A stretch of DNA of 64,000 nucleotides from Planctomycetota bacterium (GTDB lineage Bacteria > Planctomycetota > PUPC01 > DSUN01), in the NCBI GenBank assembly GCA_035527715.1, contig DATKZY010000144.1, forward strand, positions 4,444 to 68,443, in the 5' to 3' direction. How positions within the stretch are numbered: the stretch's first letter is position 1; every line of letters starts with the position of its first letter. Positions 7,816 through 36,736 of this stretch are shown one piece after another. Both the position numbers and the translations under genes were made by a program. Under the pieces are notes generated by a model. The model was not told where the DNA came from, did not search any database, and worked only from the letters and a program-made list of their open reading frames with translations.

Positions 7816-7819
7816 CGCG

Positions 7820-14778: not shown

Positions 14779-16086
14779 ATGAGCAACAGAGGAATGGGCC
14801 TGCACGTCCTCGCGGGACTTGCGCTGTTCGCCGCGCCGGGGTGCATGATCTGGCTTCGCCCCGAGTGGGCGGAACTGAAGAAGTCCACGCAGCCGCCGAT
14901 CCTGCGGCTGGGAGAAATCAAAGAGACCTTCACGGGAACCTGGGTGGCCGGGGGCACGCAGACGAGCCTCAGGAACCACCTGCTGAGCGCCTTTGCGCGG
15001 CCCGAGGCCGCTGCCCTGTTCTCCGGCGACCCGGACAGCCTGACGCTGAACCTCGATATTGTCTCGGACCACGAGGACGATATGCCGCGCATGTTCGTTC
15101 TGGGCTGCCTCAGCATTGGCACCCTGGGCCTGCTCCCGCTCACCTACCATTCGGAATGGAACTTGCAGTGCAGCGTGACCGTCAAAGGCCCCGACGGCAC
15201 GGTCGTGGCGAAGTACCCGGTCCAGACGACGGGCAGCTACGACATCTGGGCGCTGCCGCCCACGATGTTCACCTTGTTTGCCGGATCGTTCCGGGCGCCG
15301 GGCGACGCCGGGCGCATCTTCCGCAGGATGGTCCATCGCGTCGTCGCCGACGTCAGTAAGGCGGTGGACACCGACTATCCGCGCCTGGCCAGGTGGAAGG
15401 AGGCGCGGGCACTCGTCGCGGCGCAAGCGCCGCTGAACGCGGCCATCGGCGACACAGCGTACTGGGTGGTCTACAACATCTCGACGCCTCAGCCCTCGGG
15501 CGCGGGAGCCGCGGCCTCGGCGCGCGAGTACGCCCTCGAGCTGCACCGCACCCGCCCGCAGCCGGGGGCGGCACCGCTCCGCCGCCTCGTCGTCGGCACG
15601 CGAAGCGGGGCAGTGAAGACCGCCTGGCAATGGCGCGACCCGAAGAGCGTGGTCTTCTTCGCCCACGGCCGCCTGTGGCACCCCGAGTGGAAGACGGGCC
15701 AGCCGGGGGACAAGCTGGTCGCCGTCGGGTTCCGCGAGCGCGCGGTCACCGCCAAGGACCTCTTCGCGCCCGACGGCCTGCCTGCCCTCGCGGCGACGGA
15801 GTGGAACGACCTCGTGGTGGCCTGGAAGAACCGCGACCTGGCCACCCTCCTGCGCGAGGGACGCACCGCCGACCTGGGCGAGCATGTGGCGCAGATCGAG
15901 CAGTTGGCCCTGCGAGCCAACGAGTCGGCGGACCGCGAGAACAACAAGGCGGAGGAACTGAAGGCGGCGGGCAAGCCGGGCAGCGAACTCCACCGCGAGG
16001 CGGCGCTGGCCTACCGCGCCCGCATCGAGGTCCTCAAGCCCATCCTCGCCGCCATCAAGGCCGAGGTGGCCAATCGCCAACGATGA
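14779..16086 (+). CDS. Lipoprotein, uncharacterized family; paralog 1 of a 4-gene tandem array
   Basis: AAGGAG 10 nt upstream of ATG. Lipobox FAAPGCM. 435 aa. Shares conserved blocks with the next three genes: PPILRLGEIKE, DIVSDHEDD, YDIWALPPTMFT, DYPRLA, YWVVYNI, EYALELHR.RP, WQWRDP, RLWHPEWK, and a helical C-terminus ...ILKPILAAIKAEVANRQR. Confidence 0.8.
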   Translation: MSNRGMGLHVLAGLALFAAPGCMIWLRPEWAELKKSTQPPILRLGEIKETFTGTWVAGGTQTSLRNHLLSAFARPEAAALFSGDPDSLTLNLDIVSDHEDDMPRMFVLGCLSIGTLGLLPLTYHSEWNLQCSVTVKGPDGTVVAKYPVQTTGSYDIWALPPTMFTLFAGSFRAPGDAGRIFRRMVHRVVADVSKAVDTDYPRLARWKEARALVAAQAPLNAAIGDTAYWVVYNISTPQPSGAGAAASAREYALELHRTRPQPGAAPLRRLVVGTRSGAVKTAWQWRDPKSVVFFAHGRLWHPEWKTGQPGDKLVAVGFRERAVTAKDLFAPDGLPALAATEWNDLVVAWKNRDLATLLREGRTADLGEHVAQIEQLALRANESADRENNKAEELKAAGKPGSELHREAALAYRARIEVLKPILAAIKAEVANRQR

Positions 16087-16160
16087 GGCAGACCCTGCCC
16101 GGGCAGGCGGCGCGCCGCGGGCCGAGACCAGGTAGCTGGGAGGGGACGGAGCCTACTGCG

Positions 16161-17462
16161 ATGCGCACGAACACAACGGTTTCTCACTTGGCCTGCCTCG
16201 TCCTGATGGCCGGGGGGGCGGGATGCATGGTCCGCCTCAGCCCGAGGCGCGTCGAGTTGAAGCGCTCGGCCCGGCCTCCCATCTACCGCCTGGGCAAGAT
16301 CACCGAAGACCTCACGGGCACCTGGGCCGCCGCCGCGAAGACCAACGACTGGGGGGGCAAGAACCCCGTGGCCGCCTTGCTCCGGCAGTCCGAAGCCGCC
16401 TCGCTGTTCAGCAGCGACCCCAACAACCTGACGATGGACATTCATCTTGTGTCGAGCCACGAGGACGACGCCCCGCGCCTGGCCTTCCTGGCGCTCATGA
16501 GCATCTGTACGCTGGGCATCATGCCCCTCCACTACCGCTCGGAATGGACCTCGGACGTGACGGTGACCATTCGGACGCCGGACGGGGCAACCGTGGACGA
16601 GCATGCGCTCCGGGCCAAGGGGGCCTACGACATCTGGGCGATGCCGCTCACCATGTTCACCCTGGGCACCGCGGCCCTGCGCGGGCCGCTGGACGGGCAG
16701 GAGGTGCGCAACCGCATGACGCGGAAGGCCGCGGCCGACCTGATGGAGGCGGCCGAGCGCGACTACGACCGCCTGGCGCGCTGGCGCCAGGCCTGGGCCG
16801 TCATCGCCGACCAGCAGCCGATCAGCGTGCAGGCCGGGGCCGCCACGTACTGGGCGACCTACAACATCGCCGCAGCCACGGAGGCGGCTGGCCGCCGACG
16901 CGAGTATGTGCTGGAGATTCACCAGAGCCGGCCGCGGCGGGGCGCGGCGCCCTGGCGCAGCGTGGTGCTGGGCGACGCGAGGCTGGCCCCCGACGCGCCC
17001 TGGCGATGGCGCGACCCGCGCGACGTGGTCCTCTACGCGGACCAACGCCTCTGGCACCCCGAGTGGAAGGTCGAGGGGCTGCAGGCCCAGCTCGCCGCCG
17101 TCCAGTTCAAGGAGCGGCCCGTCACGGCGAAGGAGCTGTTCGCGCCCGACGGCCTCAGCGACCTGTCGGCGACCGACTGGAACGACCTCCTGGTCGCCTG
17201 GAAGAACAGGGAACTCGTCGCCCTCCTCCGCGAGGCGTCCACGGCGGACCTCACGGGCCACGTCAGCCAGATCGAGCAGCTCGTGCTGCGAGCCAACGAG
17301 TCGGCCGAGCGCGAGAAGGACGAGGCGCAGAAGCTCATCGCGGCAGGCAAGCCGGGCGGCGAACTCCACGCCGAGGCCGCGCGGGCCTACGCCGCCCGCA
17401 TCGAGATACTCAAGCCCATCCTCGCCGCCATCAAGGCCGAGGTGGCCAATCGCCAGCGGTGA
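16161..17462 (+). CDS. Lipoprotein, uncharacterized family; paralog 2
   Basis: ATG 16161. Lipobox MAGGAGCM. Same conserved blocks. The track ORF 15393..17462 is N-over-extended across the intergenic region. Confidence 0.8.
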   Translation: MRTNTTVSHLACLVLMAGGAGCMVRLSPRRVELKRSARPPIYRLGKITEDLTGTWAAAAKTNDWGGKNPVAALLRQSEAASLFSSDPNNLTMDIHLVSSHEDDAPRLAFLALMSICTLGIMPLHYRSEWTSDVTVTIRTPDGATVDEHALRAKGAYDIWAMPLTMFTLGTAALRGPLDGQEVRNRMTRKAAADLMEAAERDYDRLARWRQAWAVIADQQPISVQAGAATYWATYNIAAATEAAGRRREYVLEIHQSRPRRGAAPWRSVVLGDARLAPDAPWRWRDPRDVVLYADQRLWHPEWKVEGLQAQLAAVQFKERPVTAKELFAPDGLSDLSATDWNDLLVAWKNRELVALLREASTADLTGHVSQIEQLVLRANESAEREKDEAQKLIAAGKPGGELHAEAARAYAARIEILKPILAAIKAEVANRQR

Positions 17463-17537
17463 GGGGGCCTATGGCCGGGCAGGCCCCGCCGCAGGCTAAG
17501 TGGAGGAGGCGAAATTGCTCAACTGAGGAGCACGCGC

Positions 17538-18836
17538 ATGAACACGATGAGGAGAGCCCGGCACGTTCTCTGCCTCGTCGCCCTGCTGGGGCCAACGGGC
17601 TGCATGATCACCCTCGGCCCGCGGAGGGCCGAGCTGGACAGGTCGCCCAACCCGCCCGTGCTCCGGCTCGGCGAGATCAAGGAGACCCTCACAGGATCGT
17701 GGGTGACGCAGGGGGGAGCCGGCTCCCCGGTCATCACGGGCAAGCTGGCGCGGCTGTTCTCTCAGTCCGGCGCGGCCTCGCTGTTCTCCTCGGAGCCAGG
17801 GAATCTGGCCCTCAACATCGAGATCGTGGTGGACCACGAGGCGGACGACCCGAAGCTGGTCAAGCTGGCGTTCGTGAGCATCGCCACGCTTGGGCTCGTC
17901 CCGCTCAACGGGAACGCGGAATGGCACGCGCGGTGCCAGGTGCAGGTGGCTGCCGAGGACGGGGTCGCGATCGCCAAGTACCCGATCCATGTGACTGGCT
18001 CCTACAGCATCTGGGCATTCCCTCCGACCATGATCGCGTTCATGGGCGCCGCTGGCCGGGCGTGGGCAGACGCGAGGGCGATCTTCGAGCGGATGGCCAA
18101 CAACGTGGCGGCCGAGATCATGAAGGCCGTGGCGGCCGACTACCCGCGTCTCGCCGAGGCCAAGCGGGCCCGCGCGGGAGTCGCCGAGCAGCAGCCACTG
18201 AGCATCCGGGCCGGCGGCACGACGCTCTGGGTCACCTACAGCGTCGCGCAGTCGGGCGCCGCGGGCCAGGAGTATGTGCTGGAGCTCCACCGGAGTCGGC
18301 CGCCCCGCGGTGCGGCGCCGCTGCGCAAGCTGGCCGTCGGGTCGCGGGCCGGGGTCGCCGGCCCCGAGACGCCCTGGCAATGGCGTGACCCGACGAGCGT
18401 TGTGTTCCAGGCCGAGGGGCGCCTGTGGCATCTCGAATGGAAGGTCGAGGGGCCACTGCACAAGCTGGCCGCCGTCGAGGCCCGCGAGCGCAAGCTCACC
18501 GCGCGCGAGCTTCTGCGCCACGACTCGTTCCCCGATCTGCCCCCGGGGGACCAGAATAGCCTGCTGCTGGCATGGAAGACCCGCGACTTGCTCACGCTCC
18601 TGCGCGAGGCCAGCACGTCGGACCTGGAGGACCACATCGTGGGGATCGAGGAGATGGTCCTGCGAGCCAACGAGATGGCCGAGCGCGAGAAGGACGAGGC
18701 GCAGAAGCTCATCGCTGCGGGCAAGCCGGGCAGCGAAATCCACGCCGAGGCCGCGCGAGCTTACCGCGCATGCATCGAGATCCTCAAGCCCATCCTCGCC
18801 GCCATCAAGGCCGAGGTGGCCAACCGCGCGAAGTAG
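17538..18836 (+). CDS. Lipoprotein, uncharacterized family; paralog 3
   Basis: GAGGAG 7 nt upstream of ATG 17538. Lipobox LLGPTGCM. Same conserved blocks. Confidence 0.8.
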   Translation: MNTMRRARHVLCLVALLGPTGCMITLGPRRAELDRSPNPPVLRLGEIKETLTGSWVTQGGAGSPVITGKLARLFSQSGAASLFSSEPGNLALNIEIVVDHEADDPKLVKLAFVSIATLGLVPLNGNAEWHARCQVQVAAEDGVAIAKYPIHVTGSYSIWAFPPTMIAFMGAAGRAWADARAIFERMANNVAAEIMKAVAADYPRLAEAKRARAGVAEQQPLSIRAGGTTLWVTYSVAQSGAAGQEYVLELHRSRPPRGAAPLRKLAVGSRAGVAGPETPWQWRDPTSVVFQAEGRLWHLEWKVEGPLHKLAAVEARERKLTARELLRHDSFPDLPPGDQNSLLLAWKTRDLLTLLREASTSDLEDHIVGIEEMVLRANEMAEREKDEAQKLIAAGKPGSEIHAEAARAYRACIEILKPILAAIKAEVANRAK

Positions 18837-18934
18837 TTTCTGCAGGGGAAGCCCGAATCGTGGCGACGAGCGGCGGCGCTTGTCGCTCGACCGCCACAAG
18901 CCAGCCGCTTGCGGCCACACAGGAGGGCGTGAAC

Positions 18935-20212
18935 ATGACAAGATCGGCGGGGTGGCCGTTGTGCATGGGGCTGATCCTCTCTGCGTCAGGGTGCGTGGCC
19001 ACGTTTCGCCCAAAGTGGGCGGAGCTGGAGAGGCCGACCCAGCCGCCCATCCTGCGACTCGGGGAGGTGAAGGAGTCCTTCACCGGAACCTGGGTGAGCG
19101 CCGGCAAACAGAGAAGCATCAGGAACGTGCTCTTGAGCGCGCTTGCGCAGCCCCAGGCCGCTGCCTTGTTCTCCGACGACCCGGGCAATCTGACCCTCAA
19201 CCTGGACATCGTGTTGGACGGCGAGGACGACGACCCCCAGTCGTTCGAGATCTGCGGCAAGTGCGTGCTCACGCTCGGGCTAATCCCCCTGACATGGCAC
19301 ACCGAGCACAACCTGCGGTGCGACGTCTCCATCAAGAGCCCCGACGACTTCGTGGTTGCGAAGTACCGAACCCATGTGACAGGCTCAAACGACGTCCTCT
19401 TCCTGCCTCCCACGATGGTCACGATGCTCGGGGGCCCGGTCGGGGGAAGGATTGCCATCGCGAGCATCTTCCGGAGGATGGCCCGCAGTGTCGTTGCCGA
19501 CATCATGAAGAGGGTGACGACCGACTATCCGCGGCTGGCCGAGGTGAAGCAGTCGAGAGCCGTGGCTGCGGGGCAGGCGCCGCTGAGCGTGGTGATTGGG
19601 GATACGCCGTACTGGGTGGTCTACAATATCTCGGCGGCGGGGCCGAAGTGGGAGTACGCCCTGGAGCTTCACCGCAGCCGTCCGCAACCGGGGACGGCGC
19701 CGCTGCGAAGTCTGCTCGTCGGCACGCGAAGCGGGGAAGCCGCCTCGGCCTGGCAGTGGCGCGAGCCGAAGAGCGTCATCGTGTTCGCTCAGGGGCGCCT
19801 GTGGTATCCCGCATGGCGGACCGAGGGGCCGGCCGAGAAGCTGGCCGCCGTCGAGTTCAAGGAGCGAGCTGTGCCCGCGAAGGAGCTCTTTCAGCCTGGC
19901 TCGCTGGGCGGCCTGTCGGCCAGCGAATGGAACGACCTCCTGGTCGCCTGGAAGAACAGGGAACTCGTCGCCCTCCTTCGCGAGGCGTCCACGGCGGACC
20001 TCACGGGCCACGTCAGCCAGATCGAGCAGCTCGTGCTGCGGGCCAACGAGATGGCCGAGCGGGAGAAGGACGAAGCGCAGAAGCTCATCGCGGCAGGCAA
20101 GCCGGGCAGCGAACTCCACGCCGAGGCCGCGCGGGCCTACGCCGCCCGCATCGAGATCCTCAAGCCCGTCCTCGCCGCGATCAAGGCCGAGGTGGCCAAC
20201 CGCCAGAAGTGA
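18935..20212 (+). CDS. Lipoprotein, uncharacterized family; paralog 4
   Basis: AGGAGGG 7 nt upstream of ATG 18935. Lipobox LSASGCV. Same conserved blocks. The track ORF 18572..20212 is over-extended. Confidence 0.8.
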   Translation: MTRSAGWPLCMGLILSASGCVATFRPKWAELERPTQPPILRLGEVKESFTGTWVSAGKQRSIRNVLLSALAQPQAAALFSDDPGNLTLNLDIVLDGEDDDPQSFEICGKCVLTLGLIPLTWHTEHNLRCDVSIKSPDDFVVAKYRTHVTGSNDVLFLPPTMVTMLGGPVGGRIAIASIFRRMARSVVADIMKRVTTDYPRLAEVKQSRAVAAGQAPLSVVIGDTPYWVVYNISAAGPKWEYALELHRSRPQPGTAPLRSLLVGTRSGEAASAWQWREPKSVIVFAQGRLWYPAWRTEGPAEKLAAVEFKERAVPAKELFQPGSLGGLSASEWNDLLVAWKNRELVALLREASTADLTGHVSQIEQLVLRANEMAEREKDEAQKLIAAGKPGSELHAEAARAYAARIEILKPVLAAIKAEVANRQK

Positions 20213-20230: not shown

Positions 20231-21280
20231 TCACTTGCCGAGAGGCGAGACCAGGAAGTACTTCCCGACCCCCGAGGTGTCGAAGAAATCGCCTGGGGTG
20301 ATGTCAATGGGGCCGAGCCTGTTCCCCTCCAGCTTCAACCCGGTGGCGGTAGCCACGGCGATCGCCGCCTTCTCGGAACAGACCGCTTTGTCGCCCAAGA
20401 GCCCGAAGCCGGGCTTCTTTTGCAGTGCGGCCTCCCTGGCGACGCCCCAGAGCTTCTTGCCGTCCACAGGGGCCTGCGGCCTGGCCACGTAGATCCCGCG
20501 GCCCTGGTACTGCTTCACGAGCTGCTTCTCGTCCAGGATGCGGCTGCCAACCTTGGGGGTGTGGTCCAGGAACAGGAGCCGGCCATTGGCCTCCTTCACG
20601 AACGTTAGCGCATGCGCCGCAGGCGATTTCTCCCTGGAGAGCGCCCGGAACACGTTACCCTTGCACAGATCGTCCAGGACCCGGTAGAAGCGGTCCGCTG
20701 CGGGGAGAGCCTTGCTTCCGGCACTGCTGGTGTCGGGCGTGAAGAGCAGAATGTCCCCCGGCAACAGGTCCTTCAGCTCCTTGGGGCGATGGGCTGGCGC
20801 CGGCTCCCGGCCCTCCTCGATGGCCGCAACGACCTCCTGGCGCCACTCCTTGTGCCGCCCCGCTGCCTCGCGCACTGCTGCCTCTTGCTTGCGCAGCCAC
20901 GGGCCAGCCGAGGTCGTCAACTCATGCTGCTCGCGCCACTTCGCCCCCTCACCCTCAACGTCCTGATTGAACTGGCGCGCCGCCTCGACATACTTAGTCT
21001 TGGCCGCCTCGAGCGCGGCCAGCTCGCGGCGCGCGGCCGCTTCCTCGGGGGAGCCTTCGACCACCCCGCCGCCGTACTTGGCGGCGAACGCCTTGTTCCT
21101 CTTGACCAGATCGCTGAGCTCCTGCCGCAGCTCCGCTTGACGCCGGGCCAGCGCGGCGCGCACCTCCTGGGGCAGCTCGTCCGGGATCGGCTCGAGCGCG
21201 GGCACCCCGGCATGCAGCCAGCCGGCAAGAGCGACGCCGAGCGCCAGGCATTGGAGCGACTTTCGTACTCTCAGGTTCAC
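20231..21280 (-). CDS. Secreted protein with an N-terminal coiled-coil region and a C-terminal domain that may be a permuted papain-like (NlpC/P60-type; His before Cys) hydrolase
   Basis: GTG start at 21278-21280 with AAGGAGG 6 nt upstream. Signal peptide NLRVRKSLQCLALGVALAGWLHAG. C-terminal GDILLF...AHALTF...GDKAVCSEKAAIAV suggests a His...Cys permuted arrangement. Domain call is low confidence. Confidence 0.55.
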   Translation of the reverse strand: MNLRVRKSLQCLALGVALAGWLHAGVPALEPIPDELPQEVRAALARRQAELRQELSDLVKRNKAFAAKYGGGVVEGSPEEAAARRELAALEAAKTKYVEAARQFNQDVEGEGAKWREQHELTTSAGPWLRKQEAAVREAAGRHKEWRQEVVAAIEEGREPAPAHRPKELKDLLPGDILLFTPDTSSAGSKALPAADRFYRVLDDLCKGNVFRALSREKSPAAHALTFVKEANGRLLFLDHTPKVGSRILDEKQLVKQYQGRGIYVARPQAPVDGKKLWGVAREAALQKKPGFGLLGDKAVCSEKAAIAVATATGLKLEGNRLGPIDITPGDFFDTSGVGKYFLVSPLGK

Positions 21281-21294
21281 GGCTGCCTCCTTTC

Positions 21295-22992
21295 TCACCG
21301 TGTAGAGTCGCGAGACCCCGGCGACGGCTTCGGCGAGGGCGGCGGAACGGGTTCCTTCTTGCTCTTCTCAGGCTCCTCGGTGAAATCCGGCGGGGTGAGC
21401 TTGATTAGGCGCTCCTTGATGTTGACCTTCGCCGTGTCGGCCTCCGACTTCGCGGCGTTCATCTGATTCATGACCTCCGCTCTCTCCACCTGAAGCTTGC
21501 CAACATTGCCTTCGTTGTTGGTGAGCTTCTCCTTGATGACCTCCAGTTTGCTCTCAAGCTTGCGGTATTTCTCCTCCGCGGCTTTCTTCTCCCCCGTGAG
21601 GCGCACGATCTCCGGATCCTCTCGGAAGCGTTTGGGCACCGAGACATCGCTGGACTCTATGGGATGCCCCGTCACGACCGGAACCGGGGCTGCCCCCTGC
21701 GATGTCCCGCGCTCGCCAGTCGAATCGAACCCGAGTTGCGCTCTGTCGCTGGCGCTTGCGCCCGAGGGGGCCAGCCAGCCCTGCTTGCTAGATCTCCTTA
21801 CGCCATCGAGCTGCTCACGAACGTTCCCATACTGGGGGGTGCCAGGACGGTCTGCCCGCGGGGCCGTCCCGGCTTCGCCGCGGCGCACGGAGCCCTTCCC
21901 AAACGGGGAAGTCGCTTCGCCGCTGCGCGTGTCGGCTGCCACCCCCCCCGACCGGCCGTCGGCTGGGGGCGTGCGGCGCCGCGGTTCGGGCAGTTCTGCG
22001 GCGGACGCCGTCGGAGTCGGAAGGCCGAACGGGAGCTTGGCGACGCCCTTCTCCAGGGCGGCCAGGCCCGATTCCGCCGCATCGCCCGCCTCGTCGAGGG
22101 CGCGCGAGCCGAGCGCCTTGAGCTTCGCTCCGAGGGCCTCGCTGTCCGTCGCCGTGAGCAGCTCGCGCACGATCTCGCCGCCAGGCCCGTCGCCCGCGCC
22201 TGCCTCGCCGAGGGCGGCCCGCGAGAAGCCGTAGTTCTCGGTGGCGAAGGCATCGGTCGCCGCGGCTCGTTGCTCCTGGGCCTCGAGGAAGGCCGGGTCC
22301 AGGCGCCCGGTCAGGATGCCAACCTCGATGGCGACTGCCGGCGGCAGGTCGTAGGCATAGCCGCCGAGGCGGAGCAGGGATTCGAGCCGCTGCTGGGGCG
22401 TGGGCTCGGGGCGGAGGTCTACCACCGAGCTGTCCACGAACGGCTCGGAGCCGCCGAGGCCGAAGAACGAGGTGCCTCCGGGCACAGGGTCGGGGCGGAG
22501 GTCTACCACCGAGCTGTCCACGAAGACGTCGAAGACCCCGGCGAGGCGCTGGCTGATCTCGGCGTCGCGGCGGTCCCAGTCCGCGCGGAGATGGGCGGCG
22601 AGGCGGATGCGCGCGCGGCGAAGCTGCTCCTGGCGCTGGCGCTCGCGCTCCCGTGCGAGGGCCTCCTGTCGGCGCCGCTCGGCAGCGAGGGCGGCCGCCC
22701 GCTGTTGCTGCTCCGCCATGCGCTGGAAGAACCCGTCGATCAGCCCGCTCACCGCGTTGCCGAGCGCCTCGCCGCCGCCGGAGCCTCCGGAGCTGCGGCG
22801 GCTGCCGCCGGAGGACCCCAGGCCCAGCCCGTAGTATCGGCACGACGAGTAGTGCCAAGGGTGATAGCTCGGGTGGCCGCAGATGCCGCACCCGTAGCTC
22901 GCGGCAGAGGCCGCCTCCGGCCATAGCATCGCGAGCACCGCCAACAGGGTGAGCGCAAGAACCGGGCAGCGGAAGAAGGGCAGTTTATTCAC
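21295..22992 (-). CDS. Secreted Cys-rich, Gly/Ser-rich and coiled-coil protein with an internal tandem repeat; hypothetical
   Basis: GTG start (track). Signal peptide. N-terminal SYGCGICGHPSYHPWHYSSCRYYG. Long Arg/Glu/Gln-rich helices. Stop lies 14 nt upstream of the next gene start. Confidence 0.6.
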   Translation of the reverse strand: MNKLPFFRCPVLALTLLAVLAMLWPEAASAASYGCGICGHPSYHPWHYSSCRYYGLGLGSSGGSRRSSGGSGGGEALGNAVSGLIDGFFQRMAEQQQRAAALAAERRRQEALARERERQRQEQLRRARIRLAAHLRADWDRRDAEISQRLAGVFDVFVDSSVVDLRPDPVPGGTSFFGLGGSEPFVDSSVVDLRPEPTPQQRLESLLRLGGYAYDLPPAVAIEVGILTGRLDPAFLEAQEQRAAATDAFATENYGFSRAALGEAGAGDGPGGEIVRELLTATDSEALGAKLKALGSRALDEAGDAAESGLAALEKGVAKLPFGLPTPTASAAELPEPRRRTPPADGRSGGVAADTRSGEATSPFGKGSVRRGEAGTAPRADRPGTPQYGNVREQLDGVRRSSKQGWLAPSGASASDRAQLGFDSTGERGTSQGAAPVPVVTGHPIESSDVSVPKRFREDPEIVRLTGEKKAAEEKYRKLESKLEVIKEKLTNNEGNVGKLQVERAEVMNQMNAAKSEADTAKVNIKERLIKLTPPDFTEEPEKSKKEPVPPPSPKPSPGSRDSTR

Positions 22993-24706
22993 GACGGTTC
23001 TTCACCTCCTCAAGCTCCTTGGCGAGCTCTTGTGCCATCTGGGGGTCGAGCTCGACGGCGCGGTCCAGGTGCTGCGCGGCCGACCTGTAGCGCCGGAGGG
23101 CGAGGAAGGCTCGGCCCAGGGTGGCGTGGGCCTCGGCGTCGTTGGGGGCCGTGGCCAGCGCGCGCGCGAGGGCCTGGATGGCCTCCTCGTGCCTGCCCGC
23201 GCGCTGGAGCACGTGGCCGAGGGTCGCGTGCGTCCACGCCCAGTCGGGGGCGGCCTTCGCTGCCTTGGCGCAGTCGGCGAGCGCCGCCGACTTGTTGCCC
23301 ATCTGCGCGTAGGCGCGGGCGCGCACGAGGAGCGCCATCGCGTCGTCGGCCTCGATCGCGAGCGCCCGGTCGCAATCGCGCACGGCCTCGGCCGACCGGT
23401 TCTGGCCGAGGAGCAGGCGGGCCCGCAGGGTGTAGACGAACGGCGTCTTGGGCGCGAGGGCGATGGCCTGGGTGACATCGGCCAGGGCGGCCTCAGGGTT
23501 CCGCTTCCGGTTGTGGAACGCGGCGCGCTCGGTGAACGAGCGCCAGTCCTTGGGGTCGGCCTCGACCGCCTTGTTCAGCGCCTCGAGGGCCTCGCGGTCC
23601 TGCCCGAGCGCCTGGTGTGCCCGGCTGAGGAGGCGGCATGCTTCCGCCTCCTTCGGGCTGGCGTCGAGCACGCGGCGCGCGTGCTCGAGCAGGGCGCTCC
23701 AGGCCCCCCGCGCCTCGTCCACCCGCGCGAGCACGAGGAAGACCTGAGGGTCCTTCGAGCCGAGGGAGAGCGCCACCTGGCCGTCCTCGGCGGCCAGGGC
23801 CACCTCGCCCAGCCGCTCGCGGGCCACGGCGCGAAGCACATATGCCTCAGCGAGTGTCGGCCGCAACTGGATGGCGCGCCCGAGGTCCTCGACGGCCCCG
23901 TGAAGCTCGCCCCGGTCCGTCCGCAGCCGCGCGCGGGCCAGATGGGCCTCCGCCAACTCCGGGTTGCGTTCGATGGCGAGGGTGAAGTCGCGAAGCGCTT
24001 CGGCGGCGGCCCCTTTGCGGGCGAGGGCCTGGCCGCGGTTGAGGAGGGCGAGGGCGCTCTTCGGCTCGGCCTTGAGCGCCTGGGTGAAGCGCTCGACCGC
24101 CTGGTCCCACTCCCCGCGCTCGCGGTGGGCGATGCCCTGGAGCAGGACGGCTTCGGCGAGCTCCGGGCGCTTCGCAGCAGCCGCGGCCGCATCCTTCCCC
24201 ACGGCCTCCCAGTCCCCGCGGAAGGCGTGGATCCACGCACGCTCCAACAGGGATTCGGGCGAGCCCTGACTCGCCTCGACCGCGCCGGTGGCATCGGCGA
24301 GCGCTGCGTCGGGGCGGCCGAGCAGCCGGTGCGCGCGCGCCCGCAGAAGCAACAGGTCGGCCCGCCGCGGCGCCGCGGCCACGCCATCCGTTGCGTCGGC
24401 CACCACCTCGGCCCAGCGGCCCTGGCCGGCCAGCAGTTCGGCCCTGGCGAGCCGATGGTCGGCGTTGAACGGCTCCAGGCGGACCGCCTCCGACGCGTCG
24501 GCGAGGGCGCCGACCGCATCGTGCATCTGCACCCGCAGCCTTGAGCGCGCGAGCCAGAGGTCGGCGCGTTTCGGATCCGCCTTGAGTTGCTGGGTCAGCT
24601 CGGCGAGCTTCTTCGAGCCGGCCTCGGGGCCGGCCGGCGTTTCGGCGGCACGCACGGCGCCTGCCGCGAGAAGGGCCAGGTACAGCGCGCCAGCGGCCAC
24701 GGGCAT
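22985..24706 (-). CDS. Secreted tetratricopeptide-repeat (TPR) protein
   Basis: Start at MPVAAGALYLALLAAGAVRAAE (signal peptide). Many Ala/Leu-rich 34-residue TPR-like units (AEA..LARA....G....A..D...A..L.P). Overlaps the downstream gene start by 8 nt. Confidence 0.7.
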   Translation of the reverse strand: MPVAAGALYLALLAAGAVRAAETPAGPEAGSKKLAELTQQLKADPKRADLWLARSRLRVQMHDAVGALADASEAVRLEPFNADHRLARAELLAGQGRWAEVVADATDGVAAAPRRADLLLLRARAHRLLGRPDAALADATGAVEASQGSPESLLERAWIHAFRGDWEAVGKDAAAAAAKRPELAEAVLLQGIAHRERGEWDQAVERFTQALKAEPKSALALLNRGQALARKGAAAEALRDFTLAIERNPELAEAHLARARLRTDRGELHGAVEDLGRAIQLRPTLAEAYVLRAVARERLGEVALAAEDGQVALSLGSKDPQVFLVLARVDEARGAWSALLEHARRVLDASPKEAEACRLLSRAHQALGQDREALEALNKAVEADPKDWRSFTERAAFHNRKRNPEAALADVTQAIALAPKTPFVYTLRARLLLGQNRSAEAVRDCDRALAIEADDAMALLVRARAYAQMGNKSAALADCAKAAKAAPDWAWTHATLGHVLQRAGRHEEAIQALARALATAPNDAEAHATLGRAFLALRRYRSAAQHLDRAVELDPQMAQELAKELEEVKNRRE

Positions 24707-24926
24707 CCCTCGCAATTCACGTCCAGGTTGCAGCATGCCGGTTTGTGCCTCCAAAGACTCCCTGGCGGGGCCCGATGCGGCCTCCCCAATGGGTAGTATA
24801 GCGCACCAAGCAGGGATTGCAAGACAATAGCAGCGGCAGGTCGCACGCGAGCCCCCACTTGCCGTTGCCGCCGCCGGCGGCTATCATTGGGATGGCAGGC
24901 GGAGCCGTGTGCGGAAGGAGCACAGG

Positions 24927-30990: not shown

Positions 30991-33900
30991 CTACTTCGCG
31001 TCGGCCGAGGCGACCTTCTTGCCGTCGGCGTCGCAGATGATGCGGAAGCCGACGTTGTGGACGCACTGCCAGGAGGCGTAGTCGTAGCGGACGGCGCTGC
31101 GGGCGCGGAACGGCCGGTCGTAGTAGGAGCCGCCGCGAGCGACCTTGCGGCCGCTGTCGCTCGGCGCGTTGCGCCCGTCGGCCTCGACGTAGGGATACGG
31201 CTTGTAGGCGGTCAGAGTCCACTCCGCTACGTTGCCGGCCATGTCGAGGAGGCCGAAGGCGTTGGGGGTGTACTTGCCGACGTTGTCGGGGACGATCGAG
31301 CCGTCGTTGACGCCGGCAATGCACGGGATCCACTTGGGCGAGTCGCGGATGCACAGCTCGGTGAGCCGCTTGTCGGCGAGGTTGGCGAGCTTGCCGAAGT
31401 CGGCCGTGCAGTCGCCCCAGTAGAGCGGGGTGTCGGTGCCGGCCCTCGCGGCCCACTCCCACTGGGCCTCGGTGGGCAGGGCGAACTTGCGGTCGGTCTT
31501 CTGGCTCAGCCAGTAGCAGAAGTCCATCGCCTGCTTCCACGAGATTCGGAGGACGGGCTGCTTGTCGCGGTTGACGGCCTGGCCGCGGTTCGAGTGGTCC
31601 TTGTTGAAGACGCTGATGTAGGCGCTGTCGTGGGCGGCGTCGAAGAGGGCGTATTGCTCGTTGGTGATCTCGCACTTGCCCATGTAGAAGGGCTTGTCAA
31701 CCTTCACGCGGCACTGGGGATACTCGTCGGGATAGCCGTCGGCCGAGCCCATGACGAATTCGCCGGCGGGCACGAGCACGAGGTCGAGCGCGAGGTTGTC
31801 GGCGAGGGCGATCTTCAGCTCGGCGGGCAGGCCGGCGGCCTCCTGGCGCTTCTTGGCCTCGGCGGCGTCGAAGGGCCAGCCGGCCACTTTCTCAGCGAAG
31901 GGCTTGCGCTCGGGCGGCGGCTCGGGCTTCACGAAGGCCGGCCGCTCGGGCGGCGGCGTGGGATACACCTCGGGGTTTTCCGGGCGGTTGGCGTACTTCG
32001 TGCGCATCTCGAGCCGCCGCTGGACGATCTTCTCGATGTTCCCGCGGTGCTCGGTCCACGTGCCGTGGCAGGGGACGTTGAGGTCAATCCAGGTGTAGAG
32101 GCGGTCCCAGGCCTCGGCGTCGAGCTTCACGCCGTTGTGGCCCTTCTTGAGCATCTGGACGAGTTCGCTGGTCGAGGCGTCCCACTCCATCGGCACCTGG
32201 AGGTGGTAGTCGCTCTCGGGGCCGGGCCGCCGCACGTAGGGGTGGAGGGCGAGGTAGGACTTGGCGAAGCCGCGGTCGCCCTTGCCCGTGTCGGCGAAGC
32301 AGGGCAGCGTCTTGCCGTCCTGGCGCGGCTTGCCGTCGTGGCAGCCGACGCAATGCTTGTCGAGGACGGGTTGGACTTCGCGGAGGAAGCTGAAGCCGCG
32401 GGCCGCGCCGCGCCAGGGCTCGATCTCGGACGGCTTCTGCGTGGCCGCAATGGTGCGGCGCAGGCTCGGCGTGGTGTTCTGCCGCTCGTGGCAGCCGACG
32501 CAACTGGCGGCCTCGCCGGGCATTGCCGTGTACCAGCTCCGCATGACCTGGACCGCCTTGCCCTCGGCATCGAGGGGCTGGACCGCGATCGGGAGGTTGG
32601 CGGGGACCTTGAAGAGGGCGGAGCCGTCGGGATTGACGGGCACGGTGCCGTGGATGCGATGGACGTCCCACGGGCCGTCAATGCCGATGTGGATGTGGCC
32701 GCCCATGCCGTTGTAGCCGTAGTGTGGCTCGAGGAGGCGGAGCTTCTTGACCGTGCCGCGGGGCACGCCCTTCAGGCCCTCGCCGAAGTAGACGTCGTTG
32801 AGGTAGACCGTTGCATAGTCCTTCGAGAGGTCCACCTTGTCGGGGACGACGGGCGGCTTTGCGGTCTTGCGGAGCGGCACCGGCTCGAGGATCGCGTAGC
32901 CGGGCACCTCCAGGATCGGCAGGATGTTGTCGAACGTGTCCACCAGGCAGAGCGCCCAAGGCGACTGGGCGTTCATCTGGCAGGAGACGAGGATGTACTT
33001 GTCGCTGAGGGGATAGGGGTGGAGGAACTTGGGCCAGGCGGGGTTGGCCAGGCCATCGGTGATCGTGGCGACCGTCGGCGTGCTGTTGCTGGGGATGAGC
33101 TGCACCGCGCCGTCGTCCTCGTGGCGGCCCTTGGCGGGGTCGTAGACGAGCAACTGCCCCATGCGCGGCACCCCGTGGTGGCCGGAGATGATGGCCACCA
33201 CCTTCGTCGGATGGCCAGGCACCGGGCGGGCGTAGAACGTCGAGTTGGGCCAGTAGCTGTTCGAGAAGGCGAACTCCATCTGCTCCGTGCCGTCGGGGTT
33301 CATGTGGAAGAGCAGGCGGCTGAAGTAGTGCGGGGTGTCGCTGTATTCCCAGCGGGTGTAGAGCACGCGGCCGTTGTTGAGAACGGTCGGGCACCAGTTC
33401 TGGTCCTGGTCGAAGCACAACTCGCGCTCCTTGCCCGTCTTGGGGTCGAGGAGCACGATGTTGGCGACGGGCGAGCCGCCGCCGACGCAGGGCACGCCGT
33501 GGAAGGCGCGGGTGGAGGTGAAGAGGATGCGGCCGTCGGGCAGGTAGCAGGGGTCGAAGTTATCTACGTCCGGCTCCAGGCCGGGGTTCACCTGTCGCAG
33601 GCCGGAGCCGTCGGCCTTGATCTCGAAGACCTGCCAGCGGCCGTTGGCGCCGATGGACGAGAAGATCATCCGGTCGCCGTCCCAGTGGAGGTCCACGTCG
33701 CCCACGAACTCGCCGTTGGCCGGCCGGTAGAGGGTGGTGAGCTGCGCGCCGGGCCGAACGGGCGAGAGGACGGCGATCTCATTGTCGTAGCCCTTGCTGG
33801 CGATCGAGGCGTTGGTCACCCAGTTCTGGGGCAGGCCGAGGTTGCGGGCGCTACGCTTGACGACCAGAAGCTTGTCGAAGTCAATGAGCGGGTTGTGGGT

Positions 33901-35154
33901 GAGGAGGGCCTCGGTGCGCAGCGTGCGGATCTCGTCGCCGACGTCGGCCAGTTTCTTCACGTTGCCAGGGTCGCCCTTGGCTTCGGCGACCTCGACCACG
34001 GCCTTCTCGAGGGCCTCGAGGCGCTGGAGGAACTCCTTGCCCTTCGTGTACTGGGTGGGATAGGTGTCGGCGAGGTCCTCGATGGCGAGGCGGAGGGCCT
34101 TGAAGTTGAAGTTCTTCACGAGGGCGGAGGCTTCCTCGACGCGGAGCGAGCGGTAGTAGGGCTCGCGGACCCTGGCGAGGTCGGCGGGGGCCTTCACGTC
34201 GCCGGCGGCCGCCGCGGCCTCCTTGGCCATCGAGGGCATGCGGGTGGCGGCGACGTAGCGCTTGGCGAGAGCGGCCAGGTCGCCAGGCGTCCAGTCGGCG
34301 GCCCAGAGGTTGTCCTGGCGCTCCCAGCTCATCTCGCGGCCGGCGGAGCCGTCGCGGAAGTCGCGGCTCACGAGGCTCCACAGCTCGTCGCGGGCGATTT
34401 GCTTGGGGTCGCGCTTCCTGGAGGCGACGGCGCCCGCGACGGGGGTCGGCGAGGTGTGGAAGTAGAAGCCATGGCCGCCGCTGTTGTTGTGGATTTTCAG
34501 CAGCAGGTGGTTCTCGCCCTTCTTCAGCTCGAGCTTCGCGGTGTCCTGGTTGGGCGCGTGGCCGCGGGGGGTGTCGTTCGAGATCAGCAGCTTGCCGTTG
34601 AGCCAGGCGCGCATGCCGTCGTCGCTGCCGAAGTAGCCGGTGATCGTCATGTCCCTGGGGGCCTTGATCATGCGGTAGAGATAGGTGGAGCCGTTGGTGC
34701 CGGCCGACATGTCGTGGGGCACGCCGTCCTGGAACTGCGGGCAGGCCTGCCAGCGGAGCTTGCCGTACGACTTGGTCATGGCCTCCTGCCAGGCCGGCTT
34801 GCCGCCTTCGGCGCCGTCGAGGACGGCGGAGAGGTCGTCGTGCTTGCTGAGGGCCGCCTCCTTCTCGGGCGGGAAGGCCATCGTGAAGTTCTTCTGGTTG
34901 TTGGGCGGGTAGAAAGGCCCGACCAGGTACCACGTGCCCAGCTCGACGCCGGCAGAGGGTTTGGGGACAGGCTTGGCCGAGGGCTCGACAGAGGGCTTCG
35001 CCGTCTGGTCGGCCTCGTGCTTCAGGAGCGCCTCGCGCGAGGCGAGCATCGTCTCCTGCCATGTGCCCTTCTTGACGTAATAGGGCGGGTCGGCGGCGAG
35101 CACGGATGCAGCGAGGAGCAGGAGCGAGCCGGAAACGGTCAGTCGCGCGGGCAT
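30991..35154 (-). CDS. Giant secreted multidomain protein: PA14-like domain, TolB-like beta-propeller, two CXXCH haem-binding motifs, C-terminal formylglycine-generating-enzyme (FGE/SUMF1) domain
   Basis: ATG 35154 with GGAGG 6 nt upstream. Signal peptide MPARLTVSGSLLLLAASVLAAD. PA14-like ...TITGYFGSDDGMRAWLNGKLL... Propeller repeats DGRILFTS, NGRVLYTRWEY. CVGCHE and CVGCHDGK. FGE motifs GEFVMGS, NAFGLLDMAGNVAEWT, RVARGGSY, GFRI. The track ORF 30991..36738 fuses this gene with the upstream one. Confidence 0.8.
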   Translation of the reverse strand: MPARLTVSGSLLLLAASVLAADPPYYVKKGTWQETMLASREALLKHEADQTAKPSVEPSAKPVPKPSAGVELGTWYLVGPFYPPNNQKNFTMAFPPEKEAALSKHDDLSAVLDGAEGGKPAWQEAMTKSYGKLRWQACPQFQDGVPHDMSAGTNGSTYLYRMIKAPRDMTITGYFGSDDGMRAWLNGKLLISNDTPRGHAPNQDTAKLELKKGENHLLLKIHNNSGGHGFYFHTSPTPVAGAVASRKRDPKQIARDELWSLVSRDFRDGSAGREMSWERQDNLWAADWTPGDLAALAKRYVAATRMPSMAKEAAAAAGDVKAPADLARVREPYYRSLRVEEASALVKNFNFKALRLAIEDLADTYPTQYTKGKEFLQRLEALEKAVVEVAEAKGDPGNVKKLADVGDEIRTLRTEALLTHNPLIDFDKLLVVKRSARNLGLPQNWVTNASIASKGYDNEIAVLSPVRPGAQLTTLYRPANGEFVGDVDLHWDGDRMIFSSIGANGRWQVFEIKADGSGLRQVNPGLEPDVDNFDPCYLPDGRILFTSTRAFHGVPCVGGGSPVANIVLLDPKTGKERELCFDQDQNWCPTVLNNGRVLYTRWEYSDTPHYFSRLLFHMNPDGTEQMEFAFSNSYWPNSTFYARPVPGHPTKVVAIISGHHGVPRMGQLLVYDPAKGRHEDDGAVQLIPSNSTPTVATITDGLANPAWPKFLHPYPLSDKYILVSCQMNAQSPWALCLVDTFDNILPILEVPGYAILEPVPLRKTAKPPVVPDKVDLSKDYATVYLNDVYFGEGLKGVPRGTVKKLRLLEPHYGYNGMGGHIHIGIDGPWDVHRIHGTVPVNPDGSALFKVPANLPIAVQPLDAEGKAVQVMRSWYTAMPGEAASCVGCHERQNTTPSLRRTIAATQKPSEIEPWRGAARGFSFLREVQPVLDKHCVGCHDGKPRQDGKTLPCFADTGKGDRGFAKSYLALHPYVRRPGPESDYHLQVPMEWDASTSELVQMLKKGHNGVKLDAEAWDRLYTWIDLNVPCHGTWTEHRGNIEKIVQRRLEMRTKYANRPENPEVYPTPPPERPAFVKPEPPPERKPFAEKVAGWPFDAAEAKKRQEAAGLPAELKIALADNLALDLVLVPAGEFVMGSADGYPDEYPQCRVKVDKPFYMGKCEITNEQYALFDAAHDSAYISVFNKDHSNRGQAVNRDKQPVLRISWKQAMDFCYWLSQKTDRKFALPTEAQWEWAARAGTDTPLYWGDCTADFGKLANLADKRLTELCIRDSPKWIPCIAGVNDGSIVPDNVGKYTPNAFGLLDMAGNVAEWTLTAYKPYPYVEADGRNAPSDSGRKVARGGSYYDRPFRARSAVRYDYASWQCVHNVGFRIICDADGKKVASADAK

Positions 35155-35255
35155 CTCATTCCTCCAAGGCTTCCTGAATGCGGCCCGGGGCCGGACACAC
35201 GCTAGAGTCGTATTGTATATGCGAACTGCCGGGCTGTCAAAAAAGACTCGCGAGT

Positions 35256-36689
35256 TCACCGGTCCACGATCGAGCCGCGGGTCTTCAGGGCCTGGCGGAG
35301 CTTGGCCCCGTCGATCGCGCGCGGCGTAAGGCCCGCCGTGGCGCACCAGGCGGCGGCGAGCCCTGCGGCTTCGCCCATCGCCACGCAGTCGCCGGTGACG
35401 CGATAGGAGGCGTGGGCCTCGTGGGTGCCCGAGATGCAGCGGCCGGCCACGAGCAGCCGCTCCAGCCGCCGGGGCACGAGGCTGCGGTATGGGATGTGGT
35501 AGGGCTTGATGGCGGGGCGCCTCGCGTGGTCGCGGTCGGCCGGCCGCAGGGGGTGGATGTCCACGTTGAAGCTCGCCAGGCAGATGCCATCGGGGTGGCG
35601 GCGGCCGGCCACCATGTCGTCCAGCGTGACGACGTATTCGCCCAGGACGCGGCGGGTCTCGCGCACGCCGATCTGCTCCGCCGTGGCGACCAGGCGGGCG
35701 TCGCGCAGCTCGGGAATGTGGCGGAACAGCTCGGCCACCTGGCGGGCCTCGCGGCGCGCCGCGACGCACGCCGCCGAGAGCTGCCGGGCGTCCGTCGCAT
35801 CCACCTCGTAGACGTGGACGAGTTGGACCACGGCGTCGCCGGACCCCGGCAGGTTGATGATCCAGGGGCGGCAGAAGGGGGGCACTTGGGTGCCCTGCTC
35901 CTTGGCCGCCTGCTGCATCAGGCCATAGAGGTGGCCGGAGTTCTTCTGGAGGAAATGGCAGTTGGAGAGTCGGAACATCAGGGTCAGGGGCTGCATGAGG
36001 CCGTCCTCGGGCCGCCCCTTCTCGAAGGCGGCGCCCGCGCGGGCCGCCACGTCGCCGTCGCCCGTGCAGTCCACCACCACCTTGGCCAGGATGGCGGCGC
36101 GGCCCGACTTGTTCTCGACGAGGACTCCCTGGATGTTGGGGCCATCGAGGAGGGTGTCGGCCACCCAGGTGTGGAGCAGAAGCTCGACGCCCGCCTGCCC
36201 GGCCAACTCGTCGAGGAGGAACTTCATGGCCTCGGGGTCGAAGGTCGTGAGGAACCCCGGGTGGAGGGGATCGTCGCGCCAGGCGTTTCGCGCCTGGAGG
36301 GCGCGGACCAGTTCGCGGACGATGCCGCCCTTGTTGGCGTGGTCGAAGAGGGGGTTGAGGAGGCCGGTGGTCCACATGCCGCCGAGGGAGCCGTAGCGCT
36401 CGACGAGCATCGTCCTGGCTCCGGCCCGCGCGGCGGACAGCGCGGCTCCGATCCCCGCCGGCCCGCCGCCGGCCACGAGGACATCCACCTCCGCGACCAC
36501 GGGCGTCTGGCGTTCCCGCTCGGTGAGAAGCTTCATCGGCTCGGTTCTCCCTGTGCTCCCGTCGCCCCTGGGCGCGTCGCGGCGCGGGTCCGAGGCGCCC
36601 GCCAAGGCGTCGCGGGCCGCGAGGGCCGCCGCGGGAGCGATGGCGGCCGCCGCCAGGAAGTCGCGTCGAGGACGGCGCTGGGGGAGCAT
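35256..36689 (-). CDS. TAT-signal FAD-dependent oxidoreductase
   Basis: RRDFLAAAAIAPAAALAA twin-arginine signal. Dinucleotide-binding VDVLVAGGGPAGIGAALSAARAGA. Confidence 0.75.
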   Translation of the reverse strand: MLPQRRPRRDFLAAAAIAPAAALAARDALAGASDPRRDAPRGDGSTGRTEPMKLLTERERQTPVVAEVDVLVAGGGPAGIGAALSAARAGARTMLVERYGSLGGMWTTGLLNPLFDHANKGGIVRELVRALQARNAWRDDPLHPGFLTTFDPEAMKFLLDELAGQAGVELLLHTWVADTLLDGPNIQGVLVENKSGRAAILAKVVVDCTGDGDVAARAGAAFEKGRPEDGLMQPLTLMFRLSNCHFLQKNSGHLYGLMQQAAKEQGTQVPPFCRPWIINLPGSGDAVVQLVHVYEVDATDARQLSAACVAARREARQVAELFRHIPELRDARLVATAEQIGVRETRRVLGEYVVTLDDMVAGRRHPDGICLASFNVDIHPLRPADRDHARRPAIKPYHIPYRSLVPRRLERLLVAGRCISGTHEAHASYRVTGDCVAMGEAAGLAAAWCATAGLTPRAIDGAKLRQALKTRGSIVDR

Positions 36690-36736
36690 GCACTACCTCC
36701 TGCGGACGGGTCGGCCCGCAGGAGGCAGTGTAGTGC
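36690..36736 (-). promoter_or_regulatory. SD-sequestering 5'-UTR hairpin directly upstream of the FAD-oxidoreductase start codon; copy 1 of a repeated motif
   Basis: On the mRNA: GCACUAC-ACUGC-CUCCUGCGG / loop / CCGCAGGAG-GUAGUGC then AUG. The anti-SD CCUCCU pairs with the SD AGGAGG. Confidence 0.5.

Follow-up and report, generated by a model that had tools for sequence, protein, structure and literature searches.

What connects a compact operon of exported proteins to the lipoprotein genes that it runs into, and what would its last product do there? The question is raised by a 64,000-nucleotide stretch of a Planctomycetota bacterium genome (GenBank assembly GCA_035527715.1, contig DATKZY010000144.1, positions 4,444 to 68,443; hereafter the window), in which three minus-strand genes, encoding a tetratricopeptide repeat (TPR) protein and two proteins that we call g2 and g3, converge on four tandem lipoprotein paralogs. 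An earlier note, made from the sequence alone, had described this packing and convergence, and had speculated that a secreted peptidase or amidase, its accessory proteins and the lipoproteins make up a toxin/immunity or envelope-remodelling module. The layout stands as described, with all of the open reading frames (ORFs) present. Homology to loci in other genomes shows the window locus to be a composite of two separately conserved modules, A and B, that are fused within g2, and the C-terminus of g3 is confidently predicted, from structural models, to adopt a circularly permuted NlpC/P60 (YaeF/YiiX-like) enzyme fold. We propose, with about even chances of being right, that an exported TPR-g2 scaffold docks a Cys-His-Asp acyl hydrolase or transferase that acts on a lipid-linked envelope substrate.

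Sequence and AlphaFold2 (AF2) models describe g3 (20231..21280, minus strand) as an exported 349-aa protein with a signal peptide, a helical N-module (g3N, aa ~25-156, 20813..21208) and a permuted papain-like NlpC/P60 (YaeF/YiiX-like, PPNE) catalytic domain (aa 160-349, 20234..20803), the last assigned by AF2 and Foldseek. The full-length model (pLDDT 82) places three long helices in g3N, at residues 38-69, 78-123 and 125-156, with pLDDT values of 88-97 over residues 21-110, and a globular C-terminal domain after them. Foldseek on the full-length model returned helical-bundle noise only (BAR, FAT, apoE; best E 0.2), and the domain was then modelled alone (residues 160-349; pLDDT 83, pTM 0.83). 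With the domain alone, the only PDB matches at E<=0.001 are 3KW0, a B. cereus ‘cysteine peptidase’ (BcPPNE), and 2IF6, E. coli YiiX (E 1.2e-4 to 4.2e-4, prob 1.00, TM 0.41-0.61), which bears out the earlier suggestion of a permuted NlpC/P60 or papain-like C-terminus. The top named matches in the viral library (BFVD) are ‘permuted papain-like amidase YaeF/YiiX C92’ proteins and poxvirus OPG091/G6R (E 3e-5 to 1e-3, prob 1.00), and the LRAT-family enzyme PLAAT3 stands at Foldseek rank 8 for the domain. LRAT/PLAAT enzymes are acyltransferases or phospholipases.

The model runs from a strand (GDILLF) through helices to a strand beginning at His223 and a strand ending at Asp239-His240, and from there through strand, helix, strand, helix and loop to a helix beginning at Cys301 (VCSE) and a final strand. 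DSSP assignments, in domain numbering, have helix 142-154 begin at the Cys, strand 64-72 begin at the His, and strand 75-82 end at Asp-His. PPNEs carry their Cys at a helix N-terminus and have a six-stranded antiparallel sheet (PMC3142127), and the order of secondary-structure elements in the g3 model is that of BcPPNE and YiiX in the same work (PMC3142127).

Conservation, counted in 185 members of the g3 family with residue totals that vary by column (177-180), points to a catalytic triad. The predicted catalytic histidine, His223 (codon 20612..20614, minus strand), the first residue of a beta-strand, is conserved in 177/177 sequences, and the predicted nucleophile, Cys301 (20378..20380, minus strand), which lies in V-C-S-E at a helix N-terminus, in 180/180; the His/Cys dyad that the earlier note had advised looking for is thus invariant. 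Asp239 (20564..20566, minus strand), at the end of the next beta-strand, is the predicted polar third member; of 178 sequences, 165 have D in this column, 6 have E and 6 have N. Xu et al. (2011), who described the PPNEs, gave the catalytic residues of BcPPNE as Cys154, His49, Glu64 and Tyr127, and those of YiiX as Cys128 and Tyr115 (PMC3142127). Asp239 corresponds to Glu64 of both YiiX and BcPPNE, Cys301 corresponds to YiiX Cys128, and His223 matches YiiX His49, where His49 and Glu64 of YiiX were read from its sequence by motif. The residue order in g3, H223 then D239 then C301, is the circularly permuted (PPNE) order. Five motifs (PGD, SH, D/E, CSE, I[TS]PxD) can be aligned with E. coli YaeF, where they come in the same order. 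The first reads PGDILLF in g3, TGDIIF in YiiX and PGDLLF in YaeF; the second, with the His, AHALTFV, SHTGMLV and SHVAIFL; the acidic third, FLDHT, VFEAV and VAEAT; the fourth, with the Cys, VCSEKA, YCSEVV and FCSEFV; and the fifth ITPGDF in g3 and ISPADL in YaeF, with none listed for YiiX. Many further polar residues are invariant in the g3 family, among them Y258 (176/177), R261, D273 and D331.

The catalytic fold of g3 is thus already known, while its family is, judging by the database searches, undescribed at the sequence level. g3 matches nothing in Pfam, NCBIfam or PADLOC, and when PDB sequences were searched with it, as a single sequence or as a profile, only chance similarities to coiled coils came up. 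A word-indexed search found 47 clusters of relatives, and a profile search found 255 representatives at E<=1e-3 among 1.84 billion (clusters at 50% identity). Nitrospirae, Syntrophus, Deltaproteobacteria and alphaproteobacterial metagenome-assembled genomes (MAGs) are among the sources named, the members are annotated only ‘hypothetical protein’, and the conserved portion is the C-terminal ~230 residues. We call the family a new sequence-divergent PPNE clade, rather than part of Peptidase_C92 as now defined, because a link to PF05708 is undetectable by sequence. g3 shares with YaeF and YiiX the fold, the His-acidic-Cys order, the Cys in C-S-E at a helix N-terminus, the His in S/A-H at a strand start, and an N-terminal export signal. 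It differs from them in giving no PF05708 sequence match, in an extra helical insertion between strand 1 and the His strand (domain-model helices 28-47 and 51-55), in the position of the PPNE signature Tyr, which is Y or F in its family and Phe in g3, and in its ~130-aa helical N-module and obligatory upstream partner, neither of which is described for YiiX or YaeF.

The four lipoprotein paralogs (14779-16086, 16161-17462, 17538-18836 and 18935-20212, together 14779..20212, plus strand) are 52-62% identical to one another, and are identical to NCBI genes VNE39_15370-15385 of a Planctomycetota bacterium MAG, all of them ‘hypothetical protein’. They match no meaningful family in Pfam, NCBIfam or PADLOC, and their profile finds nothing among PDB sequences. 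Homologs of g2 led to four loci, L009-L012 (loci are cited by our own numbers), where a TPR gene (full-length identity 55-72%) and a g2 homolog (identity 46-58%) run convergently toward one or two genes that are 45-50% identical to the window lipoproteins; g3 is not present in any of the four. A scan with the lipoprotein profile, with one genome per species, gave 16 further loci, which were mapped by hidden Markov model (HMM) and phmmer. One to four lipoprotein genes occur there with an orthologous TPR gene (34-56% identity over ~480-540 aa) and a gene like the N-terminal part of g2 in L014, L017, the Planctomycetota locus L015, and L018, L020, L022-L025 and L027 from Syntrophaceae/Deltaproteobacteria MAGs. 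Together with L009, L011, L012 and L055, the three genes adjoin in 14 independent loci. The contig-truncated L010 has the g2 N-module beside lipoproteins, L019 has a partial TPR gene beside them, and L016, L028 and L029 have lipoprotein genes with no TPR or g2 within the sequence available.

These loci define what we call module A, which is shown by homology to consist of tandem lipoprotein paralogs, an orthologous TPR protein of ~560-590 aa and the N-terminal ~255 aa of g2, in varying order. The deltaproteobacterial loci have lipoprotein genes, TPR and g2 on one strand, L017 has TPR, g2 and two lipoprotein genes, and the planctomycetal loci are convergent, while the genes flanking module A differ in every locus. 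The g2 N-terminal module of the window (aa 1-255, 22228..22992, minus strand) is 46-58% identical over residues ~27-255 to g2 genes in L009-L012 and L014, and was found by HMM in L015, L017 and the deltaproteobacterial loci L018-L027. Gene 1 of the operon, with full-length identity of 34-72% to the TPR genes adjoining lipoprotein arrays in L009-L027, is orthologous to the TPR gene found alongside the lipoprotein family elsewhere. The retention of all three components across Planctomycetota and Syntrophaceae/Deltaproteobacteria marks module A, on comparative grounds, as a conserved functional cluster. The link that the earlier note drew between the operon and the lipoprotein family therefore holds across phyla for the TPR gene and g2, and fails for g3. 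Co-occurrence of g3 with the lipoproteins was never found outside the window: g3 is absent from all of the other module-A loci recovered (~15), and none of ~35 g3-family loci has a lipoprotein homolog or the g2 N-module.

The g3 family has a different set of neighbors. Homologs with similarity to all of g3 (starting at residue ~3-43) have a TPR protein upstream, with a gap of <= ~100 nt or a 4-nt overlap, and the last ~110-160 residues of those TPR proteins are homologous to g2 residues ~388-553 (pairwise BLASTP, E 1e-7 to 1e-10). This part of g2 is a coiled-coil C-terminal module, which we call Cmod (aa ~388-553, HMM core ~438-550; 21334..21831, minus strand). Homologs that match only residues ~116-347 of g3, and so have another N-terminus, have no Cmod upstream. 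A Cmod HMM built from five seeds recovered non-seed copies in L048 (7e-23), L056 (7e-21), and L035-37 and L050 (~1e-10), and gave no further match in any other locus or in the rest of the window. Cmod sits immediately upstream of g3-type genes in L001, L002-4, L035-37/L050, L048 and L056, and L052 has two copies. Module B, as shown by these comparisons, is a scaffold with a ~110-160-aa Cmod tail, followed by a gene that starts with a g3-type helical module. Six other lineages have it, in one case with another domain downstream. That exception is L052, where a 697-aa protein made of a CxxC...CxH knuckle, TPR and two Cmod copies (39-47% identical to that of the window) is followed after 27 nt by P0045 (7992-9692); the first ~120 residues of P0045 are 63% identical to the g3 N-terminus, and FecR, TPR and SecDF_P1_head follow, not a hydrolase. 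Because L052 keeps the N-module without the hydrolase, Cmod co-varies with the N-terminal helical module and not with the catalytic domain, and since such co-variation is what is expected of a docking pair, we propose that Cmod and g3N are one.

In the window the two modules meet within g2 (21295..22992, minus strand), an exported 565-aa adaptor that has no Pfam or NCBIfam family. Its conserved N-terminal module and its coiled-coil C-terminal module are, on homology, of different evolutionary origin: the module-A part (1-255) is followed by a linker and Cmod, and g3 begins 14 nt later. The closest relative, L055, has a lipoprotein 72% identical to those of the window, a g2 of only 370 aa, and no g3. 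GC content is 73-77% in the TPR gene and the g2 N-part, 59-60% in Cmod and 65-70% in g3, in a window of ~68-70% GC, and the loci that bear module B have 44-66% GC. These values are consistent with, though not proof of, a lineage-specific acquisition of Cmod together with g3. Such an acquisition could also have been fortuitous, with Cmod and g3 brought to the 3' end of g2 by a chance recombination event and g3 acting with its own scaffold segment only, so that neither the TPR protein nor the lipoproteins would play a part. The absence of g3 from every other module-A locus, L055 included, the compositional break at the junction, and the pairing of module B elsewhere with unrelated TPR scaffolds all suit adjacency without function. 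However, the fusion is in frame, the 565-aa ORF is intact, g3 has a proper ribosome-binding site (RBS) at 14-nt spacing, the same gene is found in several samples (cluster members and contigs), and in other hosts, too, Cmod ends a TPR scaffold, so that attachment to TPR-g2 recreates its usual architecture. Since the fusion keeps the reading frame, the RBS is intact and Cmod serves elsewhere as a TPR-scaffold tail, a functional connection is the simpler reading, and we consider a chance join unlikely.

We therefore return to a scaffolded acyl enzyme. Under this proposal, Cmod and the N-terminal helices of g3 would form a hetero-coiled-coil that tethers the catalytic domain of g3 to the TPR-g2 scaffold in the periplasm. 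Catalysis would proceed via Cys301, His223 and Asp239 through an acyl-thioester intermediate, and a fatty-acyl group on a phospholipid, lipopeptide or lipoprotein, and not a peptidoglycan cross-link, would be hydrolysed or transferred. By analogy, an acyl or lipid linkage is the most likely substrate of g3, and we prefer a lipid-linked substrate because every characterised permuted member is lipid- or acyl-directed. YiiX was crystallised with a fatty acid, a hydrophobic S1 pocket is common to PPNEs, and their signature Tyr (Y115 in YiiX, Y127 in BcPPNE) stabilises the P1 carbonyl (PMC3142127); Tox-Act1 and TseH are permuted NlpC/P60 phospholipases (PMC12994826); and LnsA and Bacteroides Lnb (DUF4105) N-acylate lipoproteins (PMC7387801, PMC11573676).

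Several observations weigh against this proposal. Pfam PF05708 (Peptidase_C92) gives no match at E<=5 in 42 family members, and hhalign of the g3 profile against YiiX and YaeF reaches a probability of only 0.9-10%; the alignment is used here to show motif order only, not as evidence of homology. At the signature-Tyr position, 292, 135 family members have Y, 43 have F and 2 have W, and the g3 counterpart of YiiX Y115 is Phe292, in a low-confidence loop (pLDDT <50). The Cys301-His223-Asp239 triad is a prediction from conservation and element order. The interaction of Cmod with g3N is inferred solely from gene-neighborhood co-variation, and the absence of g3 from the other module-A loci implies that its action need not involve module A.

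A second candidate for the target is the lipoprotein array itself. The 18-nt proximity of g3 to the array is suggestive when set beside known systems, and we keep the lipoproteins as a minority possibility for the substrate because g3 accompanies them only in the window. In its boldest form, the idea would make Cmod/g3N a portable periplasmic docking pair that plugs effectors, whether the permuted hydrolase or a FecR/SecDF-head protein, onto TPR scaffolds. In this planctomycetotal lineage the pair would have coupled a lipid-directed acyl enzyme to the lipoprotein/TPR/g2 cluster, and g3 would remodel the acyl chains, whether N-acyl or ester-linked, that the four lipoproteins carry; we hold this to be doubtful. 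If true, LnsA and Lnb would be joined by a third independent permuted NlpC/P60 lineage whose targets are bacterial lipoproteins. LnsA of S. aureus (with LnsB) and Lnb of Bacteroides have a permuted NlpC/P60 core like that of g3 (PMC7387801, PMC11573676, PMC12994826), and they work on lipoproteins with a partner protein, much as g3 is a PPNE gene abutting a lipoprotein array. They differ in that no sequence relationship of g3 to LnsA or DUF4105 is detected (Pfam, 42 members), the window operon has no CPBP-type membrane partner, and the adjacency of g3 to lipoproteins is unique to this genome.

A TPR protein paired, within the periplasm, with a cysteine enzyme of the NlpC/P60 superfamily also recalls E. 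coli NlpI-MepS, and g3 could accordingly be read as an amidase or endopeptidase of peptidoglycan, with the TPR protein controlling its activity or stability, within an envelope-remodelling module. The superfamily fold, the export signals on the TPR protein, g2 and g3, and the finding, in many lineages, of a TPR protein either encoded upstream of a g3-family protein or joined to it would all fit, and the invariant polar residues Y258, R261, D273 and D331 could bind a polar muropeptide. However, MepS is a canonical, non-permuted peptidoglycan endopeptidase, whereas the g3 domain is permuted, and its best structures are YiiX, BcPPNE, G6R and PLAAT3, not canonical P60 or Spr. NlpI is a TPR adaptor lipoprotein, while the window protein, which lacks a lipobox, scores 55.4 bits against the NlpI model NF008391 (cut-off 250) and so is not its equivalog, and its link to the enzyme would run via a coiled-coil adaptor. 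With the characterised permuted members using acyl or lipid substrates, the cell-wall ‘peptidase or amidase’ of the earlier note is less likely than a lipid-directed acyl enzyme (PMC3142127, PMC12994826), and we judge a peptidoglycan role to be distinctly improbable.

Weakest is the toxin/immunity reading, in which g3 would be an antibacterial lipid-targeting toxin like the type VI secretion (T6SS) effectors Tox-Act1 and TseH and the adjoining lipoproteins its immunity proteins: these effectors share with g3 a permuted core built around a His/Cys pair, which is essential to them, attack membrane lipids from within the periplasm and have membrane-associated immunity proteins (PMC12994826), a paralog array beside a hydrolase resembles an immunity island, and g3 with Cmod looks recently acquired, yet g3 has an ordinary Sec-type signal and a scaffold partner in place of a toxin-delivery domain, no T6SS, Rhs or contact-dependent inhibition (CDI) genes stand among the annotated neighbors listed for g3-family loci or in the window flanks examined, no small gene is conserved downstream of g3 homologs, the lipoproteins travel with TPR and g2 but without g3 in every other locus (and 0/~35 g3 loci have one), and PADLOC finds no match, so that we regard it as very unlikely. 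A small membrane ‘immunity-like’ partner of g3 was also considered and rejected, since the small multi-transmembrane ORFs upstream of g3 homologs in L005 and L006 are mutually unrelated (BLAST E 6.8) and absent elsewhere.

Bacterial permuted NlpC/P60 enzymes are poorly understood, and the few that have been characterised are lipoprotein N-acyltransferases or phospholipase toxins. To these the g3 family would add an unnamed clade that is invisible to present family databases, one branch of which has a genetically obligatory coiled-coil partner and thereby offers a concrete, testable interaction. The analysis also reveals an envelope cluster (tandem lipoproteins, TPR protein and g2) common to Planctomycetota and Syntrophaceae/Deltaproteobacteria, at a time when the biology of the Planctomycetota envelope is still debated. 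Going by the absence of family matches and by the literature, the N-module with its Cmod partner, the lipoprotein/TPR/g2 cluster, and the fusion of the two are, to our knowledge, new. No principle is overturned here; the value lies in a delimited new family, a docking hypothesis, and a candidate remodeller of envelope lipids or lipoproteins.

The three ORFs of the operon were listed on the minus strand at 22985-24754/24706 (TPR), 21295-22992 (g2) and 20231-21298/21280 (g3), and form one tightly coupled operon of three export-signal proteins, each with a hydrophobic N-terminal signal-like segment. The 8-nt TPR/g2 overlap and the 14-nt, RBS-bearing spacer between g2 and g3 that had been reported earlier can both be read directly in the sequence. 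The stop of the TPR gene and the GTG start of g2 overlap by 8 nt within GTGAATAA, and an identical overlap is found in L009, L011/L012 and L014, and likewise, from gene coordinates, in L055; its retention in relatives favors translational coupling over chance. The g2 stop (TGA) is followed by 14 nt, gaaaggaggcagcc, which include AAGGAGG, and by the GTG start of g3 at 21280. The stop codon of g3 lies at 20231-20233 and paralog 4 ends at 20212, so the near-abutment of the two genes holds, with 18 nt between the convergent stops; the 19 bp of the earlier note is a difference of coordinates. No intrinsic terminator was found between these stops. A sigma-70-like promoter candidate, TTGCAA-16-TATACT, lies upstream of the TPR gene (24795..24822, minus strand), and a divergent sigma-70-like candidate at 24859-24887 on the plus strand; both are consensus matches only, and the two sites found in the region compare with 0.1 expected from shuffles.

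Gene 1 (22985..24736, minus strand) encodes an exported TPR protein of 583 aa, with its start and RBS read from the sequence. It matches TPR_2 (E=1.9e-41) and many further TPR families in Pfam. The TPR repeats and the signal peptide ascribed to it are both present, but its start is more likely the ATG at 24736 than the position 24706 (573 aa) assumed before, because GGAGG lies 11 nt upstream, the n-region gains arginines, and the length fits 586-aa homologs. TPR regions are fused to the permuted NlpC/P60 domain in P0046 (L053 863-2437; L054 326-1900) and P0047, proteins of 524-545 aa, and these fusions, found in some lineages, are independent support for a TPR-hydrolase partnership. SecDF_P1_head, besides being fused in P0045, occurs near the g3 family as a 152-aa neighbor in L006 (4400-4858) and L007 (2033-2491), where it sits with TPR and Lcl_C genes beside the g3 homolog P0009.

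The N-module of g2 contains the signal peptide, a Cys/His cluster, a Gly/Ser linker, an Arg/Glu-rich helix, a WDRRDAEISQRLAGVFDV motif, FFGLGG and two copies of VDSSVVDLRP. PADLOC, like the family databases, gives g2 no meaningful match. The label ‘Cys-rich’ given to g2 was overstated and is dropped: 4 of its 565 residues are Cys, one in the signal peptide and three in the local cluster at residues 35-51 (C35-x2-C38-x-H40...H44..H47...C51). A CxxC...His/Cys knuckle of this kind follows the signal peptide in planctomycetal g2 proteins (window 22840-22890, aa 35-51; L015 2942-4465, minus strand) and in the L052 scaffold (5872-7965), where it reads WCRQCNRLILVGETCPH, and is lacking from the deltaproteobacterial g2-like proteins; it may be a metal site. 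The VDSSVVDLRP copies of g2 lie at aa 186-195 (22408-22437) and aa 158-167 (22492-22521). The same sequence occurs in the g2 homologs of L009 and L011, and the L002 TPR protein carries a variant, DSSLVDAR, immediately ahead of its Cmod. These copies may represent a short linear motif that perhaps serves as a ligand for TPR.

Most of the lipoprotein paralogs combine a lipobox signal with an internal hydrophobic stretch at aa ~105-123 (e.g. MFVLGCLSIGTLGLLPLTY; Kyte-Doolittle 1.6-1.9), which could be membrane-embedded. The most conserved part of these proteins is the C-terminal ~100 aa, which stands alone in shorter paralogs of an Opitutales MAG (L016). The deltaproteobacterial MAG JAHDQN01 carries a second lipoprotein pair (L029 8867-11710 vs L020) without a nearby TPR gene or g2, so the family is not always accompanied by its usual partners. 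In L011 a non-coding gap of ~960 nt (7435-8390) separates g2 from the lipoprotein gene, and it was considered as a possible site of a degraded g3; it has no g3 remnant and holds two copies of a ~55-nt palindromic element, GTAGGGGCGAATCTCGTATTCGCCCCTCATGGGGCGAACACAAGGTTCGCCCCTAC, that looks like a repetitive extragenic palindromic (REP) sequence or a miniature inverted-repeat transposable element (MITE).

Elsewhere in the window, a 1915-aa ORF on the minus strand (30991-36738) carries HZS_alpha (the hydrazine-synthase alpha middle domain, E 1e-29) and, at its C-terminus, an FGE-sulfatase domain (E 1e-44). A GH113 glycoside hydrolase with a PEP-CTERM sorting tail is encoded at 7820-9001 (minus strand), and around it lie further carbohydrate-active enzymes (GH116, 3-keto-disaccharide hydrolase, GHL15 and heparinase II/III-like) together with a Ser/Thr kinase, none of them related to the module.

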